From Candidatus Eiseniibacteriota bacterium (GTDB lineage: Bacteria > ARS69), in contig JBQTGV010000147.1 of the NCBI GenBank assembly GCA_052390515.1, positions 1-24,106 of the forward strand: a stretch of 24,106 nucleotides of DNA, given 5' to 3'. Below the pieces are notes generated by a model. That model was given only the letters and a program-made list of their open reading frames with translations. It ran no database searches and was not told the DNA's origin. Below, one piece after another: positions 13,816 through 21,924 of this stretch (the stretch's first letter is position 1; the number at the start of each line of letters is the position of its first letter). A program made the position numbers and the translations under genes.

Positions 13816-14802
13816 CTATGCGAGCGTCGCCACCATCACCGCCTTGATCGTGTGCAGCCGGTTCTCCGCCTGATCGAAGACGCGCGACCCTTTGCCCTCG
13901 AACACGCCGTCGGTCGCTTCGCGGATGTCCGGGAACTTCCGCCCGATCTCGGTCTTGTCGTCGTGGAAGCAGGGCAGGCAGTGCAGGAAGATCACGTCGG
14001 GCTGACCCGCGGCGGCGAGCAGCTCCTCGGTGACACGGTACTTGCCGAGCAGCCGGATGCGCTCGGGGATCTTGTCCTCTTCGCCCATGGAGGCCCACAC
14101 GTCCGTGTACACGACCTTCGTCCCGGCAACGGCCTTCTCCGCGGAGTCGGTCACGGTGATCTTCGCGCCGGTCTCCGCGGCAATGGCCCGGCAGCGTTCC
14201 AGCAGCGCGCGGTCCGGCTGCAGGGATGGCGGCGCACCGATGCGGAAGTCGAGCCCCATCTTGGACGAGGCGACGAGCAGGGAGTTCGCGACGTTGTTGC
14301 GTCCGTCGCCGACGTAAGTGAAGGGGACGCCGCGCAGGTTCCGGCCGAAGGCCTGCTGCACGGTCATCAAGTCCGCGAGCGCCTGGGTGGGGTGGAAGCG
14401 GTCGGTCAGCGCGTTCCACACCGGAACGCCGGCGTTGGCCGCCAGCTCCTCCGCGGTCTCGTGGGCGAAGCCGCGGTACATGATGCCGTCGAACATGCGC
14501 CCGAGCACGCGGGCCACGTCCTCCACGCTCTCCTTCACGCCGAAGCGGATTTCGTCGCGGCCGAGGTACTCGGTGTGCGCGCCCTCGTCGTAGGCGGCGA
14601 CGACCGTGGCGGCGCGGGTTCTGGTGGACGGCTTCTCGAACACGATGGCGACGCTCTTGCCGTCGAGACGTCGCTTGCGCACGCCGCGCGCCTTCTCCGC
14701 TTCGAGCTCGTGGGAGAGGTCCAGGAGGTGCGCGATCTCGTCGGGGGAGTAGTCCAGCAGGGTGAGGAAGTGGCGGCCGCGCAGATCCAGCGTCACGGGC
14801 AT
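13816..14802 (-). CDS. argF: Ornithine carbamoyltransferase (probably catabolic, ArcB-type by context)
   Basis: FEKPSTRTR, HPTQALAD, GDGRNNV, YTDVWASMG, HCLP and QAENRLH motifs; directly downstream of arcA. Confidence 0.95.
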   Translation of the reverse strand: MPVTLDLRGRHFLTLLDYSPDEIAHLLDLSHELEAEKARGVRKRRLDGKSVAIVFEKPSTRTRAATVVAAYDEGAHTEYLGRDEIRFGVKESVEDVARVLGRMFDGIMYRGFAHETAEELAANAGVPVWNALTDRFHPTQALADLMTVQQAFGRNLRGVPFTYVGDGRNNVANSLLVASSKMGLDFRIGAPPSLQPDRALLERCRAIAAETGAKITVTDSAEKAVAGTKVVYTDVWASMGEEDKIPERIRLLGKYRVTEELLAAAGQPDVIFLHCLPCFHDDKTEIGRKFPDIREATDGVFEGKGSRVFDQAENRLHTIKAVMVATLA

Positions 14803-14818
14803 TCGGGTCCTCCCTGGG

Positions 14819-16039
14819 TCAGAGGGGATCGCGGAGGATCGGCTGCGTCATGCAGCGGCTGCCACCCCGTCCCCGGCAGAGCTCGGAAGCGTCCAGCTCC
14901 AGCACCTCGACGCCCGCGTCCGAGAGGCGCCGGTTGGTGACCGAATTACGCATGTAGCCGACGACGACCCCCGGCGCGAGCGCGAGCGTGTTGTGGCCGT
15001 CGTCCCACTGCTCCCGCACGAAGCCGATCTCGTCCTCGCCGGAGGCGATGAACTTGAGCGGGCGGTCGAGGCACCGCGTGAGCGCGTCCTCGAGGCCCTT
15101 CGCCTTGGTCACGGAGAGATCGGCGCCGGCTCCACGGCGGAGGATGAAGACGTCCATTCCCTTCCGCACGCCGGGGAAGAAGTTGAACTTGTCCACGTCC
15201 ACCATGGTGAGCACGGTGTCGAGGTGCATGATGGCGCGGCCTTTGCGGAAGTGCGCCACGATGACGTTCTCGAACGACTCCTCGCCGAGGAGGCGATGCG
15301 CCAGCAGCTCGGCAGCGGCCGGCGCCGAGCGCTCCCCGCAGCCGACGAGCAGGGTCCGCTCGTCGAGGACGAGGACGTCGCCACCCTCCAGCGACGCCGG
15401 GTACGCGTGCACCGGCTCGCGGCCGTACCAGAACGTGAGATCGTGTCCGCGGAATGCGGGATGATGGCGATAGATGGCGCGGAGGAAGACGGATTCGCGG
15501 CTGCGGGCCGGCGAGGCCAGCACGGAGAGCGCCACGCCCGACCCGATCCAAGCGGCGCTGTCCCGCGTGAAGAACAGGTTGGGCATGGGGTGCAGCACGT
15601 AGTCGTAGCGGTCGGAGAGCGCGTCGGCGAAGAGCGGATCGACGCCCAGCTTCTTGAGCTCCCGCTTGGGCAGCCCGCCGATCAGGCAGTCGAGCAGCCG
15701 TTCCATCGGGCACTCGCGCAGCACCTCGCGGAGCCGGCCCGACACCTTCATGCCGCAGGACCGCGGCGTGACCACCTCGTCGACGAGCTGGCCGCGCACC
15801 TCGGAATCACGAAGCGTCTCGCCCAGCAGATCCCGGAGGTAGAGCACCTCGGCACCGCGGCCGCGGAGGATGGCGACGAAGCGGTCGTGCTCCTCCTGCG
15901 CGCGCTCTGTCCACAGGATGTCGTCGAAGAGCATCGCGTCCTTGTTGAGCGGCGTGAGGCGGGCGATCTCGACGCCGGGGCGATGCACCAGCACCTTGCG
16001 CAGCGGGCCGATCTCGGACGCGACGCGATGGCCGGACAT
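14819..16039 (-). CDS. arcA: Arginine deiminase
   Basis: SEIGPLRKVLVHRPG, LFDD, PMPNLFFTRD, LEGGD, MHLDT and ELCRGRGGSRCMT (catalytic Asp/Glu/His/Cys present). Confidence 0.95.
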   Translation of the reverse strand: MSGHRVASEIGPLRKVLVHRPGVEIARLTPLNKDAMLFDDILWTERAQEEHDRFVAILRGRGAEVLYLRDLLGETLRDSEVRGQLVDEVVTPRSCGMKVSGRLREVLRECPMERLLDCLIGGLPKRELKKLGVDPLFADALSDRYDYVLHPMPNLFFTRDSAAWIGSGVALSVLASPARSRESVFLRAIYRHHPAFRGHDLTFWYGREPVHAYPASLEGGDVLVLDERTLLVGCGERSAPAAAELLAHRLLGEESFENVIVAHFRKGRAIMHLDTVLTMVDVDKFNFFPGVRKGMDVFILRRGAGADLSVTKAKGLEDALTRCLDRPLKFIASGEDEIGFVREQWDDGHNTLALAPGVVVGYMRNSVTNRRLSDAGVEVLELDASELCRGRGGSRCMTQPILRDPL

Positions 16040-18636: not shown

Positions 18637-19581
18637 TTATCGGAGGAGCGTGAGCCGCCGTCCGATGAGCCGCGTGCGCGTTTCCAGGGCGTAGATGAAC
18701 ACGCCAGCCGGCACACGCCGGCCCGCCGAGTCCGTTCCATCCCAGGCCATCGGGTGGAAGCCGCGCGCGTACGCGCCGGAGGCCAGCACGCGGACGACGC
18801 GCCCGCCGGCGTCCAGGATGCGCAGCGTGGCCTGATCCGCAGCGGGCAGATAGAAGCTCAGGCGAACGATCCCCGTGGAGGGGTTCGGGAAGCTCGGCAG
18901 CAGGGTCACCTCGGAGAAGTCGAAGCCGCCCTCCGGGAGGGGCTGCAACACTCCCGACACGCGCGCCTCTGCGGCTGCAACGACGCTCCGGTCCGACTCC
19001 CGCTGCGCAAAGACGATGCCGGCGAGCCGCTCCGTACCCCAGCCGCTACCCAGGGCGAAGGCCAGGGCGAAGGCCTGGGACTCGCCGCCTGCCGAGGCCG
19101 CCAGCGGCGTCGCCGGAAGCACGAGACGGGAGACCCGCGGCGCCAGGCCGACGGGGTCCTCGAGCACGACCACGCGGATCACCACGTCCTCCGGCGTGGG
19201 CACGGATCCACCGGCGGACACCGAGGCGGTCACGACAACCTCACCGAGCCGGGACTCCGCCTCGAAGAAGAAAAGGGCGTCGACGCCCAGCGGGGGCGAA
19301 GAGGCGGCCGCCGACTCGATGGCCGCCCGGTACGCGCTCTCCGGATCGCCGCCGCCGGCCACTGCTTCGCCGGCCACGAACGCCGCCGGCTCCGTGCCGG
19401 CGCCGTAGTACGCCGCCCGCTCCGAAACTCCCGCGTGCGTCAGCCCCGGATCGGAGCGGTGCTCCACCCAGGTGAGCGCGTCCCCGAGCTCCGCGGCCAG
19501 CGTCTCGAGCGCCGCCCGAGCCGGCGCGCACTCCCCGCACGCGGCCGACCCGAACAGCTCGACCAGGACCGTGGCGATCAT
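18637..19581 (-). CDS. Omp28/thioredoxin-like CxxC protein with FlgD/T9SS-like C-terminal domain (~314 aa)
   Basis: ATG overlaps the upstream stop (TGATG at 19583-19579). MIATVLVELFGSAACGECAPARAAL; ERAAYYG...EP; C-terminal PSFPNP...RILDAGGRVVR...WDGTD...AGVFIYAL. The upstream part of ORF 18637..20187 is an out-of-frame shadow of the M32 gene. Confidence 0.8.
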   Translation of the reverse strand: MIATVLVELFGSAACGECAPARAALETLAAELGDALTWVEHRSDPGLTHAGVSERAAYYGAGTEPAAFVAGEAVAGGGDPESAYRAAIESAAASSPPLGVDALFFFEAESRLGEVVVTASVSAGGSVPTPEDVVIRVVVLEDPVGLAPRVSRLVLPATPLAASAGGESQAFALAFALGSGWGTERLAGIVFAQRESDRSVVAAAEARVSGVLQPLPEGGFDFSEVTLLPSFPNPSTGIVRLSFYLPAADQATLRILDAGGRVVRVLASGAYARGFHPMAWDGTDSAGRRVPAGVFIYALETRTRLIGRRLTLLR

Positions 19582-21086
19582 CAGAGGTCGTACAGCGCAC
19601 CGTACTTCGATGTGACGTACGCGACGAACGGCGCGGTCGAAGGCTCGCGGCCGGTGGCGCGCCGGATCAGCTCGGCGGCGGGATACGTGCGTCCCGGCGC
19701 GTGCACCTTTCGCCGCAGCCAGCCGAGCACCGGCGCGAAGTCCCCCCGTGCGATCTTGCCGTCGATCCCGCGGATGTCCCTTCGCATGCGCTCCCAGAGC
19801 TGCGCCGCGTACAGGTTGCCGAGCGAGTAGGTCGGGAAGTACCCGAACAGCCCCGTCGCCCAGTGGATGTCCTGGAGCACGCCCTCGGAATCCCTGCGCG
19901 GGACGACGCCGAGCAGGTCCTTCATCTTGCGGTTCCACACCTCGGGAAGGTCCTTCGTCTGGATCGAGCCGTCGCACAGCCCCTTCTCGATCTCGTAGCG
20001 CAGGATGACGTGCAGGTTGTAGGTGACCTCGTCGGCTTCCACGCGGATGAACGAGGGCACCACTTCGTTCAACGCGAAGTGCAGGTCGGCGAGCTTCACG
20101 CCGCGCGTGGCCTGCGGAAACGCCTTGCGCAGCTTGGGCAGGAAGTGCGTCCAGAACGGCAGGCTTCGCCCGATGGTGTTCTCCCACATGCGGCTCTGGG
20201 ACTCGTGCACGCCGAGCGAGACGGCGTGGCCCAGCGGCGTGCGCATGAGGCGCGGATCGAAGCCCTGCTCGTACATTCCATGTCCAGCCTCGTGGATCAC
20301 GCCGTAGAGACAGACGCGAAGGTCGTGCTCGTCGACGCGCGTGGTGAGGCGGACGTCGCGGACGCCGAAGCCGGAGCAGAAGGGGTGCATGGACAGATCC
20401 AGCCGCCCCCGCGCGAAGTCGAAGCCCATCTTCTCCACGACCTCGCGGCTGAAGGTCAACTGCGCGGCCTCGGGGAAGAGGCGGGTGACGATGCGGCGGT
20501 CGGGGCGCCGCCGAGAGCGACGGATCTTCTGCACGAGCGCGACCGAGGTCTCGCGGACCTCGGCGAAGAGCGGATCCAGCCGGCGGACGGTGGCGCCGGG
20601 CTCGTAGTCGTCGAGCAGCGCGTCGTAGGGTACGTCACGGTAGCCGATCACGTCGGCGAGCCTCCTCTTGAGGCGGACCACCGTGGCCAGCCGGCCGGCG
20701 AAGTCCCGCCAGCGGTTCGAGCGGTACGCGCCGCGCCAGGCGGCGAGCCCGGCTGCCTCGGCCCGCGCCAGCTCCTTGACGAGATCCGCCGGGATCTTCA
20801 CCGCGCGGAGGTGATCGCGGCGGGCTTCGCGGATCATCGCGCTCTCCCGCGCGGGGAGCCGGCCGCTCTTCGCGGCCGCCGACAGCGCCCTGCGGAACGC
20901 CGGCGCCACGAGCTTCTCGTGCGCCACGCCGGCCAGCGTGGCGAGCTGCTGGCCCCGCGCCTCCGCGCCTTCGCCCGGCATCTGCGTCTCCTGGTCCCAC
21001 TCGAGCAGCGACGCCGCCTTCTTCACGTCCTCGAACTCGCGCCAATTCTCGATCAGCGTCTTCATCGTTGCATTCCCCGTGGTCAT
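19581..21086 (-). CDS. Carboxypeptidase, peptidase family M32 (carboxypeptidase Taq-like)
   Basis: LLEWDQETQMP, YDALLDDYEPG, HPF, DVRLTTR, HEAGH (HEXXH), HESQS, IRVEADE, QDIHW and GYFPTYSLGN. Confidence 0.95.
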   Translation of the reverse strand: MTTGNATMKTLIENWREFEDVKKAASLLEWDQETQMPGEGAEARGQQLATLAGVAHEKLVAPAFRRALSAAAKSGRLPARESAMIREARRDHLRAVKIPADLVKELARAEAAGLAAWRGAYRSNRWRDFAGRLATVVRLKRRLADVIGYRDVPYDALLDDYEPGATVRRLDPLFAEVRETSVALVQKIRRSRRRPDRRIVTRLFPEAAQLTFSREVVEKMGFDFARGRLDLSMHPFCSGFGVRDVRLTTRVDEHDLRVCLYGVIHEAGHGMYEQGFDPRLMRTPLGHAVSLGVHESQSRMWENTIGRSLPFWTHFLPKLRKAFPQATRGVKLADLHFALNEVVPSFIRVEADEVTYNLHVILRYEIEKGLCDGSIQTKDLPEVWNRKMKDLLGVVPRRDSEGVLQDIHWATGLFGYFPTYSLGNLYAAQLWERMRRDIRGIDGKIARGDFAPVLGWLRRKVHAPGRTYPAAELIRRATGREPSTAPFVAYVTSKYGALYDL

Positions 21087-21087
21087 C

Positions 21088-21924
21088 TCATCCTCTCCCT
21101 GCAAGGTACGCGAGCCCCGTGCCGACGTTGGCGACGAAACCCGCGAGCGTGAGCGCCATCAAGAGGACGCCGAAGAGCTCGGCCCCGCGTCCCTCCGGGC
21201 GGCCGATGGAGCGACGAAACACGGTGGCCGTGATCCAGCCGCCCGCGAATCCGCCGACGTGGGCGAAGTTGTCCACGCCAGGGAAGATGAAACCCATGAG
21301 CCCGAGCACGATCGCGTAGGTCCAGATCTGCCGGGTCATGAGCGAGGCTCCGACGGCGCGCCCGTACACGATCATCGCGGCCATGAGCCCGAAGAGCGAT
21401 CCGGAGGCCCCGACGGACGGCGGCCCTGGAACCAGGTCGGAGAGCAGGAAGCCGACCCCCCCGGCCAAGCTCCAGATGACGAAGAAGCGCCACGGCCCGA
21501 AGGCTCGCTGCAGCTCCGTTCCCAGCGACCGCGTCCACATCAAGTTGAACAGGATGTGCAGAACGCCGCCGTGCAGGTAGATCGCGGTGAGCACGGTCCA
21601 CCAGCGCCCGGTCAGCAGGTCGAAGGACGCCGTGGAGCCGAGGAAGCGGAGCGCGCCAGGGTCGGGAGAGAGCAGGCCGAACACGGATCCGCCGGCGCGG
21701 AGGATGGCGCGCGGCTCCATCGCCAGCGCCACGACGTAGAGGCCGATGCACGTGGCGGTGATGACGGACACGGGGTCGATGCGGCCGAAGAAGCGCTGGA
21801 TGCCGGGGCCGTAGCCCCACAGCCCGGGCCGCGCCGCGCCGCAGAAGGGGCAGCGCTCCACCGAGACGGAGATCAGCTTCCTGCAGCTCGGGCACAGCAT
21901 CGCGCCCTGGGTCTGGCGAAGCAT
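21088..21924 (-). CDS. Rhomboid family intramembrane serine protease with N-terminal zinc ribbon
   Basis: CPSC...CPFC at the N-terminus; HGGVLHILFN; catalytic GASG and DNFAHVGG. ATG 21924 after GGGGAG. Confidence 0.9.
   Translation of the reverse strand: MLRQTQGAMLCPSCRKLISVSVERCPFCGAARPGLWGYGPGIQRFFGRIDPVSVITATCIGLYVVALAMEPRAILRAGGSVFGLLSPDPGALRFLGSTASFDLLTGRWWTVLTAIYLHGGVLHILFNLMWTRSLGTELQRAFGPWRFFVIWSLAGGVGFLLSDLVPGPPSVGASGSLFGLMAAMIVYGRAVGASLMTRQIWTYAIVLGLMGFIFPGVDNFAHVGGFAGGWITATVFRRSIGRPEGRGAELFGVLLMALTLAGFVANVGTGLAYLAGRG

Follow-up and report, generated by a model that had tools for sequence, protein, structure and literature searches.

Cysteine- and selenocysteine-containing members of an HBP35-like thioredoxin-fold family on one contig of a Candidatus Eiseniibacteriota bacterium

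The two genes and their products

The stretch of DNA analyzed here, referred to as the window, is 24,106 nucleotides of a Candidatus Eiseniibacteriota bacterium (contig JBQTGV010000147.1 of assembly GCA_052390515.1, forward strand) with a G+C content of 69.5%. It encodes two related proteins that differ in the first residue of their redox motif. One, designated P0002, is a cysteine-containing protein of 314 residues encoded on the minus strand at positions 18637 to 19581, starting with an ATG at 19581-19579, ending with a TAA stop codon and lacking a signal peptide. The other, encoded on the plus strand at 918 to 2957, is a protein of 679 residues with a signal peptide when an in-frame TGA codon is read as selenocysteine (Sec, U). 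The first-pass annotation, made from the sequence alone, had described P0002 as a paralogue of this selenoprotein, with a CxxC motif that aligns to UxxC without gaps, Cys15 (19539-19537) in the position of the TGA and a FlgD-like tail in both proteins. All of these observations held, with a similarity well above what chance would produce. Every string quoted in that annotation is present, and BLASTP aligned the N-terminal 220 columns at 30% identity (E 2e-21), the first 28 residues without a gap, which places C15 and C18 of P0002 on the U and C of the partner. The C15 codon is TGC and C18 lies at 19530-19528, so that the motif C15-G-E-C18 occupies 19528 to 19539 on the minus strand, a register given by the translation and by both the pairwise and the 22-sequence alignments. 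The two C-terminal tails are 36% identical over 92 residues (E 1e-12), and both exceed the cut-off of 27 bits for Pfam FlgD_ig (PF13860), at 47.6 bits for P0002 and 31.2 bits for the Sec protein.

An AlphaFold2 (AF2) model of P0002, calculated with a 50-sequence alignment as input, had a mean predicted local distance difference test score (pLDDT) of 93.4 and is composed of three parts. Residues 1-95 (19297 to 19581, minus strand) are modeled as a thioredoxin fold in the order β1, CxxC, α1, β2, α2, cis-Pro65, β3, β4, α3, with strands at residues 5-11, 36-42, 66-69 and 72-74 and helices at 18-35, 50-59 and 80-92. C15 and C18 are at the N-terminus of helix 1 and Pro65 is ahead of strand 3, and the β-α-β-α-β-β-α core of a thioredoxin, with CxxC at helix 1 and the Pro loop, is thus present. 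A family profile built from 22 domains matched the Methanocaldococcus jannaschii thioredoxin 1FO5 with an E-value of 2.7e-7 and with the CxxC and Pro in register. Residues 96-215 (18937 to 19296, minus strand) form a β-sandwich of the Omp28/HBP35 type according to the model, the structure matches and A1, the 22-sequence alignment; in the model the sandwich itself covers residues 98-205 and the Ig-like fold of the tail 239-312. Residues 231-314 (18640 to 18891, minus strand) form a tail resembling both the FlgD Ig-like (immunoglobulin-like) domain and the C-terminal domain (CTD) of type IX secretion system (T9SS) proteins, with structural matches to the PorU CTD (6ZA2, Z 10.5), PorZ (5M11, Z 8.7) and FlgD (3OSV, Z 8.7). 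On two sorting-domain models this tail scored below the cut-offs: 14 bits on TIGR04183 (cut-off 23) and 15.2 bits on PF18962 (cut-off 27).

The best structural match of both window proteins is HBP35, the 35-kDa hemin-binding protein of Porphyromonas gingivalis (PDB 5Y1A). Residues 1-217 of the P0002 model align over 208 residues (Z 22.6, root-mean-square deviation 2.3), and residues 1-222 of the Sec protein over 211 residues (Z 23.1). Structure prediction of the two N-terminal domains, which the first-pass annotation had suggested as a check, thus returned the same fold for each, and neither of the outcomes that the annotation had named as refuting, unrelated domains or different motif registers, was seen. 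The available text of PMC2907840 describes HBP35 as a hemin-binding T9SS cargo whose thioredoxin activity in vitro requires both of its Cys residues. HBP35 and the window proteins share a thioredoxin-like domain and a β-sandwich, and in the place of the T9SS CTD of HBP35 the window proteins have a tail that resembles it; sequence identity to HBP35 is only 13-15%, with a profile E-value of 0.048. The Sec partner differs from HBP35 in using Sec and in carrying extra domains. Two further structures match the two-domain module of P0002: the DUF1223 protein Atu2684 (2AXO; Z 18.3, 190 residues aligned) and an Omp28 domain (2R2C), which aligns to residues 45-212 (Z 10.4, root-mean-square deviation 2.3, 113 residues aligned).

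The Sec protein is built from an HBP35-like UxxC module, Ig-like domains, a ThuA-like α/β domain and a T9SS-type tail. The AF2 model of its mature form had a pLDDT of 90.3, and the extra Ig-like and ThuA-like domains lie at mature-protein residues 227-546. The α/β domain, at mature residues ~345-546, is of the ThuA-like or class-I glutamine-amidotransferase-like type, with a Z of 18.6 to STM1381 (3SOZ) and of 15.5-15.7 to ThuA-like proteins; it holds invariant motifs such as FVDDD and LDGGG and matched no Pfam family.

The TGA at 1032 to 1034 on the plus strand, read as the U of U-T-F-C, was assessed by translation, by alignment and by a search for Sec machinery in the genome. The genome, which is 95% complete, contains tRNA-SeC, selB (371 bits), selA (541 bits) and selD (427 bits). 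Comparative pairing analysis located a hairpin resembling the apical part of a selenocysteine insertion sequence (SECIS) at 1047 to 1063 on the plus strand, with 6 bp and the loop CGUGC. For this analysis, 18 TGA-containing family genes (the window gene, 14 from related genomes and 3 from other metagenome-assembled genomes) were aligned gap-free from the TGA onward. The hairpin begins 13 nt behind the UGA and pairs columns 16-21 with columns 27-32, counted from the TGA. In the 18 genes 89.8% of the cells are paired, compared to 35-54% after a shift of the 3' arm by 1-3 columns, and the 12 cells with compensatory changes on both sides were reached by none of 500 shuffles. Pair 17-31 is AU in nine sequences, GC in five and UA in two, and pair 18-30 is CG in 15 and GC in three. 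Counted from the U of UGA, the loop has G23 in all 18 sequences and U24 in 14, which agrees with the arrangement in the E. coli fdhF SECIS. Folding of the single sequence behind the TGA was no better than that of shuffles (z -0.46), and support for the hairpin comes from the comparative analysis only.

In nine Cys-type genes, 27 of the 54 cells at the hairpin columns pair, with two to four of six per gene and three of six in P0002. Judged by its CxxC and these pairs, P0002 is a Cys homologue and not a selenoprotein. Because a Cys sits in the TGA column of the alignment, the genome encodes the Sec machinery and the SECIS-like hairpin covaries, decoding of the partner's TGA as Sec is well supported; the earlier argument that the Cys match favors Sec decoding stands alongside the other two lines of evidence. 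The gene at 918-2957 should be annotated as a single selenoprotein of 679 residues and not as a truncated open reading frame (ORF). Upstream of it, an ORF at 1-861 on the plus strand enters from the contig edge and carries a FlgD-Ig tail (PF13860, 42.5 bits). At three related loci (L016, L017 and L018), a FlgD-tailed gene also precedes the long Sec gene and stops with a TGA shortly before it.

Relatives and family tree

A thioredoxin-like UxxC selenoprotein family named GOS_C was predicted in 2008 by Zhang and Gladyshev with 74 Sec and 312 Cys sequences, as given in the portion of PMC2398784 at hand, and in the available part of PMC13188914 GOS_C is equated with the UxxC family NF045500. The NCBIfam model NF045500, "Omp28-related selenoprotein", is the best match of the Sec protein at 57.8 bits (52.9 bits in a six-frame search of the genome) against a cut-off of 200, and P0002 scored 16.8 bits on the same model. 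On the Pfam Omp28 model (PF11551), the Sec protein scored 29.4 bits (cut-off 34.9) and P0002 had no match; P0002 scored 17.6-19 bits on DUF1223 (PF06764; cut-off 30.7). At E ≤ 0.01, Omp28 was matched by 14 of the 22 members of A1 and DUF1223 by five. The partner has UxxC in a thioredoxin-like fold and, behind its UGA, a SECIS-like hairpin, as expected of a GOS_C-type protein. The window proteins resemble GOS_C in the thioredoxin-like fold, in a UxxC with many Cys homologues and in the SECIS-like hairpin, and differ from it as divergent branches with other domain architectures, P0002 being a Cys form. By these profile and structure matches, both are distant relatives of the catalogued GOS_C/NF045500 family within an HBP35-like superfamily. 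Literature searches joining "Omp28" or "DUF1223" with "selenoprotein" found no paper, and among the matches listed for "selenoprotein" with "T9SS" the two terms appear a single time each, in papers that were off-topic as judged from the listing.

Relatives were searched in 61 genomes, including that of the window, where these two genes are the only family members found. Matches were present in each of the other 11 genomes from the taxonomic family of the organism. The 27 matched places comprise 17 with exactly one TGA and ten with none. Sec forms are present in 11 of the 12 family genomes, the exception being G009 (82% complete), where the search found none. A short Cys form with a FlgD-type tail is present in six of the 12 (G000, G001, G002, G004, G008 and G009), and five contain both forms. 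Alignment A1 was built from 22 of the 27 places, omitting L020 for its broken frame and L023, L024, L033 and L035 as distant or partial; its invariant positions are the U/C column, C18, R22, P65, G71 and W181. The omitted L020 (contig C8 of genome G005, 73% complete) is a long Sec gene that loses its frame ~190 residues in and resumes in another, either as a frameshifted pseudogene or through an assembly error. In the β-sandwich of most relatives, at A1 columns ~165-172, two Cys residues stand side by side (CCEP or CCGP); this vicinal pair is missing from both window proteins and from some relatives. A further subfamily consists of short forms of ~250 residues that end in a SWGRIKALYR-like sequence in place of the FlgD tail, with Sec in L026 (G010), L027 (G007) and L031 (G004) and Cys in P0018 and P0034.

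The tree was calculated from 44 rows, the 22 of A1 and 22 database proteins, with outgroups picked from Cys-only database proteins since the Sec forms are truncated in the database. A clade with support of 100/97 holds three groups. The long-Sec clade (12 rows, support 99/95) includes the window Sec gene, and the short all-Cys clade with the FlgD-type tail (15 rows, support 97/89) includes P0002 and P0003, a homologue from another assembly. The third group, with the WGRIKALYR-like tail, contains three Sec and two Cys forms, and these short forms of other genomes, not the Sec protein of the window, are the closest Sec relatives of P0002. At least two to three changes between Sec and Cys are required by the tree. 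The phylogeny across related genomes that the first-pass annotation called for thus places both genes in one family and also in separate, old clades, with no recent pair. Because these clades are separate and well supported, the window pair consists of old paralogues with different architectures, belonging to different subfamilies and being neither a recent duplication nor an isoform pair, and the two clades are older than the divergence of the taxonomic family.

The wider family is very large: a profile search returned 9,687 cluster representatives at E ≤ 1e-3, of which 3,583 also passed E ≤ 1e-10. When 151 top hits were re-scored with a local hidden Markov model, 108 had CxxC, 37 began just past the motif and six showed neither; a start just past the motif is the expected signature of a Sec gene called short. 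Searching further loci with a profile from alignment A3 gave mostly tail-only matches. Seven of these loci were inspected, namely the near-full-length L040-L045 and L038, which starts behind the motif; L040, L041 and L043 have a TGA at the motif, and a pattern search in the remaining four found no motif. Some family members, such as P0050, P0079 and P0104, lack both Cys and Sec there (e.g., S-E-P-F-S-P) and may be redox-inactive variants.

The missing leader, the M32 junction and constraint on the frame

Leaders were called from hydrophobic stretches in the sequence together with strand positions in the AF2 model. The first residues of P0002, M-I-A-T-V-L-V-E, already form strand 1 of the fold, and the in-frame sequence upstream of its start is Arg-rich, with no hydrophobic stretch found. 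All five orthologues of related genomes and the database orthologues inspected have hydrophobic leaders of ~20-45 residues ahead of a domain start PR-x-V-L-V-E. Among 113 hits whose N-terminal domain is complete, only five have a leader of four residues or fewer; two of them are P0002 and P0003, and the remaining three look like partial or mis-started calls. P0002 therefore differs from HBP35, which has an N-terminal signal peptide, as does the Sec partner.

Directly upstream of P0002 lies a complete gene for a cytoplasmic-type metallopeptidase of family M32 (carboxypeptidase Taq) at 19581 to 21104 on the minus strand, which matched PF02074 at 578 bits over profile positions 4-489 of 489. This gene ends in TGA-TGA, and its first stop, which has an A in common with the P0002 ATG, lies in a 4-nt overlap (ATGA) with the start of P0002. 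Fusion of the two products by read-through or frameshift was considered and rejected in view of the two tandem TGA codons and the different frame of P0002. Contigs of three sequencing runs bridge the junction at 19581. X1, from the probable source run, has no differences; X2 and X3, from other studies, span 19455-19677 with eight differences and 19495-19616 with one, respectively. Since contigs of two other studies bridge this position, the junction is not an assembly artefact. At the orthologue loci, 1.5-kb flanks showed no M32 or NHL neighbor and no synteny, and a rearrangement is therefore the likely cause of leader loss. The window Sec and Cys genes are separated by 17 kb, lie on opposite strands and have unrelated neighborhoods. 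The surroundings of P0002, with genes for the arginine deiminase pathway, M32, M42 and NHL proteins, look like those of amino-acid and peptide catabolism; the arginine deiminase and ornithine carbamoyltransferase genes of that pathway adjoin at 13816-16039 on the minus strand.

Several observations suggest that the P0002 frame is apparently still constrained. Its G+C content at the three codon positions is 0.75/0.57/0.89, similar to that of real genes nearby. P0003 is likewise 314 residues long and without a leader, has the same start and is 83% identical to P0002 without a gap. Identity between the two is even over the domains at 82-85% (tail 84.5%, catalytic domain 83.2%), a pattern that would fit either general constraint or a short divergence. 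All 14 near-invariant residues of A2, the 50-sequence alignment, are kept in P0002 (checked by hand). The X2 contig is ~87% identical with 66 differences, of which the 39 examined fall 11/5/23 at codon positions 1/2/3 and alter 34 codons, 20 of them synonymously and 14 not; its two indels compensate each other within 5 nt. Metagenome scans for P0002 or P0003 DNA found only unrelated tail-sharing proteins.

Components of a T9SS are encoded in the genome: SprA scored over its cut-off, and PorU-like (340.8 bits, cut-off 420) and PorV-like (69.6 bits, cut-off 250) proteins were found below theirs. The C-terminal part of the PorU model (profile positions ~950-1095) accounts for 47 of the 50 places matched in the PorU search, which is consistent with many proteins of this organism bearing CTD-like tails. 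A tail of this type is a plausible secretion signal in the organism, though it would be useless without a leader.

Interpretation of the pair

The reading that we consider probable, from sequence comparison and structure models, is that the two genes are ancient paralogues whose Cys member is a predicted cytoplasmic CxxC oxidoreductase with a relic tail and whose Sec member is exported to the cell surface. P0002 would be a Cys-type (C-G-E-C) and the product of 918-2957 a Sec-type (U-T-F-C) member of the HBP35/GOS_C superfamily, each with a thioredoxin domain predicted to pack on a β-sandwich and a T9SS-type CTD further on. They would represent two subfamilies, one short, all-Cys and FlgD-tailed, the other long, all-Sec and equipped with Ig-like and ThuA-like domains. 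The exchanged residue is predicted to be the first of the CxxC and to lie where helix 1 begins, and the residue at this position makes the attack in thioredoxins; with Cys or Sec there, thiol-disulfide (or selenyl-sulfide) exchange, demonstrated in vitro for HBP35, would be expected of both proteins. The Cys gene may have lost its signal peptide on landing directly behind the M32 gene with overlapping start and stop codons. P0002 would most likely be cytoplasmic and probably co-translated with M32, and its tail would be a relic. The Sec protein would act at the cell surface after export by the Sec secretion pathway and the T9SS. Sec is a more reactive nucleophile than Cys and better withstands oxidation, and replacement of sulfur by selenium would give the surface enzyme a more reactive and oxidation-resistant nucleophile. 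Since the signal peptide of the Sec protein has no counterpart in the Cys copy, the two are probably not in one compartment.

Some findings weigh against this reading. Both window proteins stay below the curated cut-offs of NF045500, Omp28 and DUF1223. That the tail is conserved to the same degree as the other parts of P0002 would be unexpected if the protein is cytoplasmic. The synonymous count covers 39 of 66 differences on a single contig whose lineage may retain the leader. The P0002 β-sandwich is missing a segment of ~15 residues that contains the CC pair in most relatives, P0002 has VAG where the family keeps FDG, and its letter composition was marked as atypical in the tree calculation; along with the loss of the leader, these could mean decay. 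On such grounds P0002 could be a relic, deprived of its signal peptide by a rearrangement and drifting towards a pseudogene, and the loss of R3 and the lack of synteny with the orthologues would fit as well. We consider this unlikely, as the 314-codon frame is intact with a third-position G+C of 0.89, P0003 matches it in length with neither indel nor stop, third positions take 23 of the 39 examined X2 differences with 20 of 34 altered codons unchanged in meaning, the X2 indels cancel out, and no near-invariant residue has been lost.

The first-pass annotation had proposed an isoform pair, with P0002 as a possible selenium-independent backup or a diverged copy. Homology and the diverged copy are upheld, but the isoform pair and the backup are not. 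Selenium-regulated Sec/Cys isoenzyme pairs are known, for instance among Methanococcus hydrogenases, and both copies of such a pair share one architecture. The window resembles these cases in that one genome encodes Sec and Cys homologues; in contrast to them, its proteins differ in length (314 and 679 residues), domains, clade and probably compartment, and the close, recent relationship of an isoenzyme pair is lacking. A role of P0002 as a substitute for the selenoprotein under selenium limitation is suggested by the shared genome and contig, the common active-site register and the similar tail. We nevertheless regard this as very improbable, given identity of ~30% confined to the N-terminal module, a Cys protein without Ig-like and ThuA-like domains or a signal peptide, old clades in which the nearest Sec relatives of P0002 lie elsewhere, and the distance, opposite orientation and unrelated surroundings of the genes. 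Least probable of all, to our minds, is that P0002 is still exported without an N-terminal signal by means of a functional T9SS-type tail, even though P0002 and P0003 are as similar in the tail as in the catalytic domain and T9SS components are encoded in the genome. T9SS cargo reaches the periplasm by the Sec secretion pathway, and P0002 opens directly with strand 1, preceded by in-frame sequence that lacks a hydrophobic stretch.

Within the reading of ancient paralogues in different compartments, a more specific proposal is that a secreted, T9SS-tailed family member was re-purposed as a cytoplasmic enzyme and kept by purifying selection, tail included, in at least three sampled populations. 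We put this forward tentatively and with some doubt. A leaderless and apparently constrained copy of this kind would be a modest example of a secreted redox protein that has become cytoplasmic.

In other respects the pair is ordinary. According to the available text of PMC2398784, selenoprotein families normally contain Sec/Cys homologue pairs, on which the usual search method relies. The present family was catalogued as early as 2008. The presence of a Cys homologue alongside a selenoprotein does not imply a backup. For the family, the relatives can now be sorted into three subfamilies: long Sec forms, short WGRIKALYR-tailed forms with Sec or Cys, and short Cys forms with a FlgD-type tail. 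For the organism, if the interpretation is correct, one genome would use the same redox module in two places, in a Sec version at the cell surface and in a Cys version in the cytoplasm.

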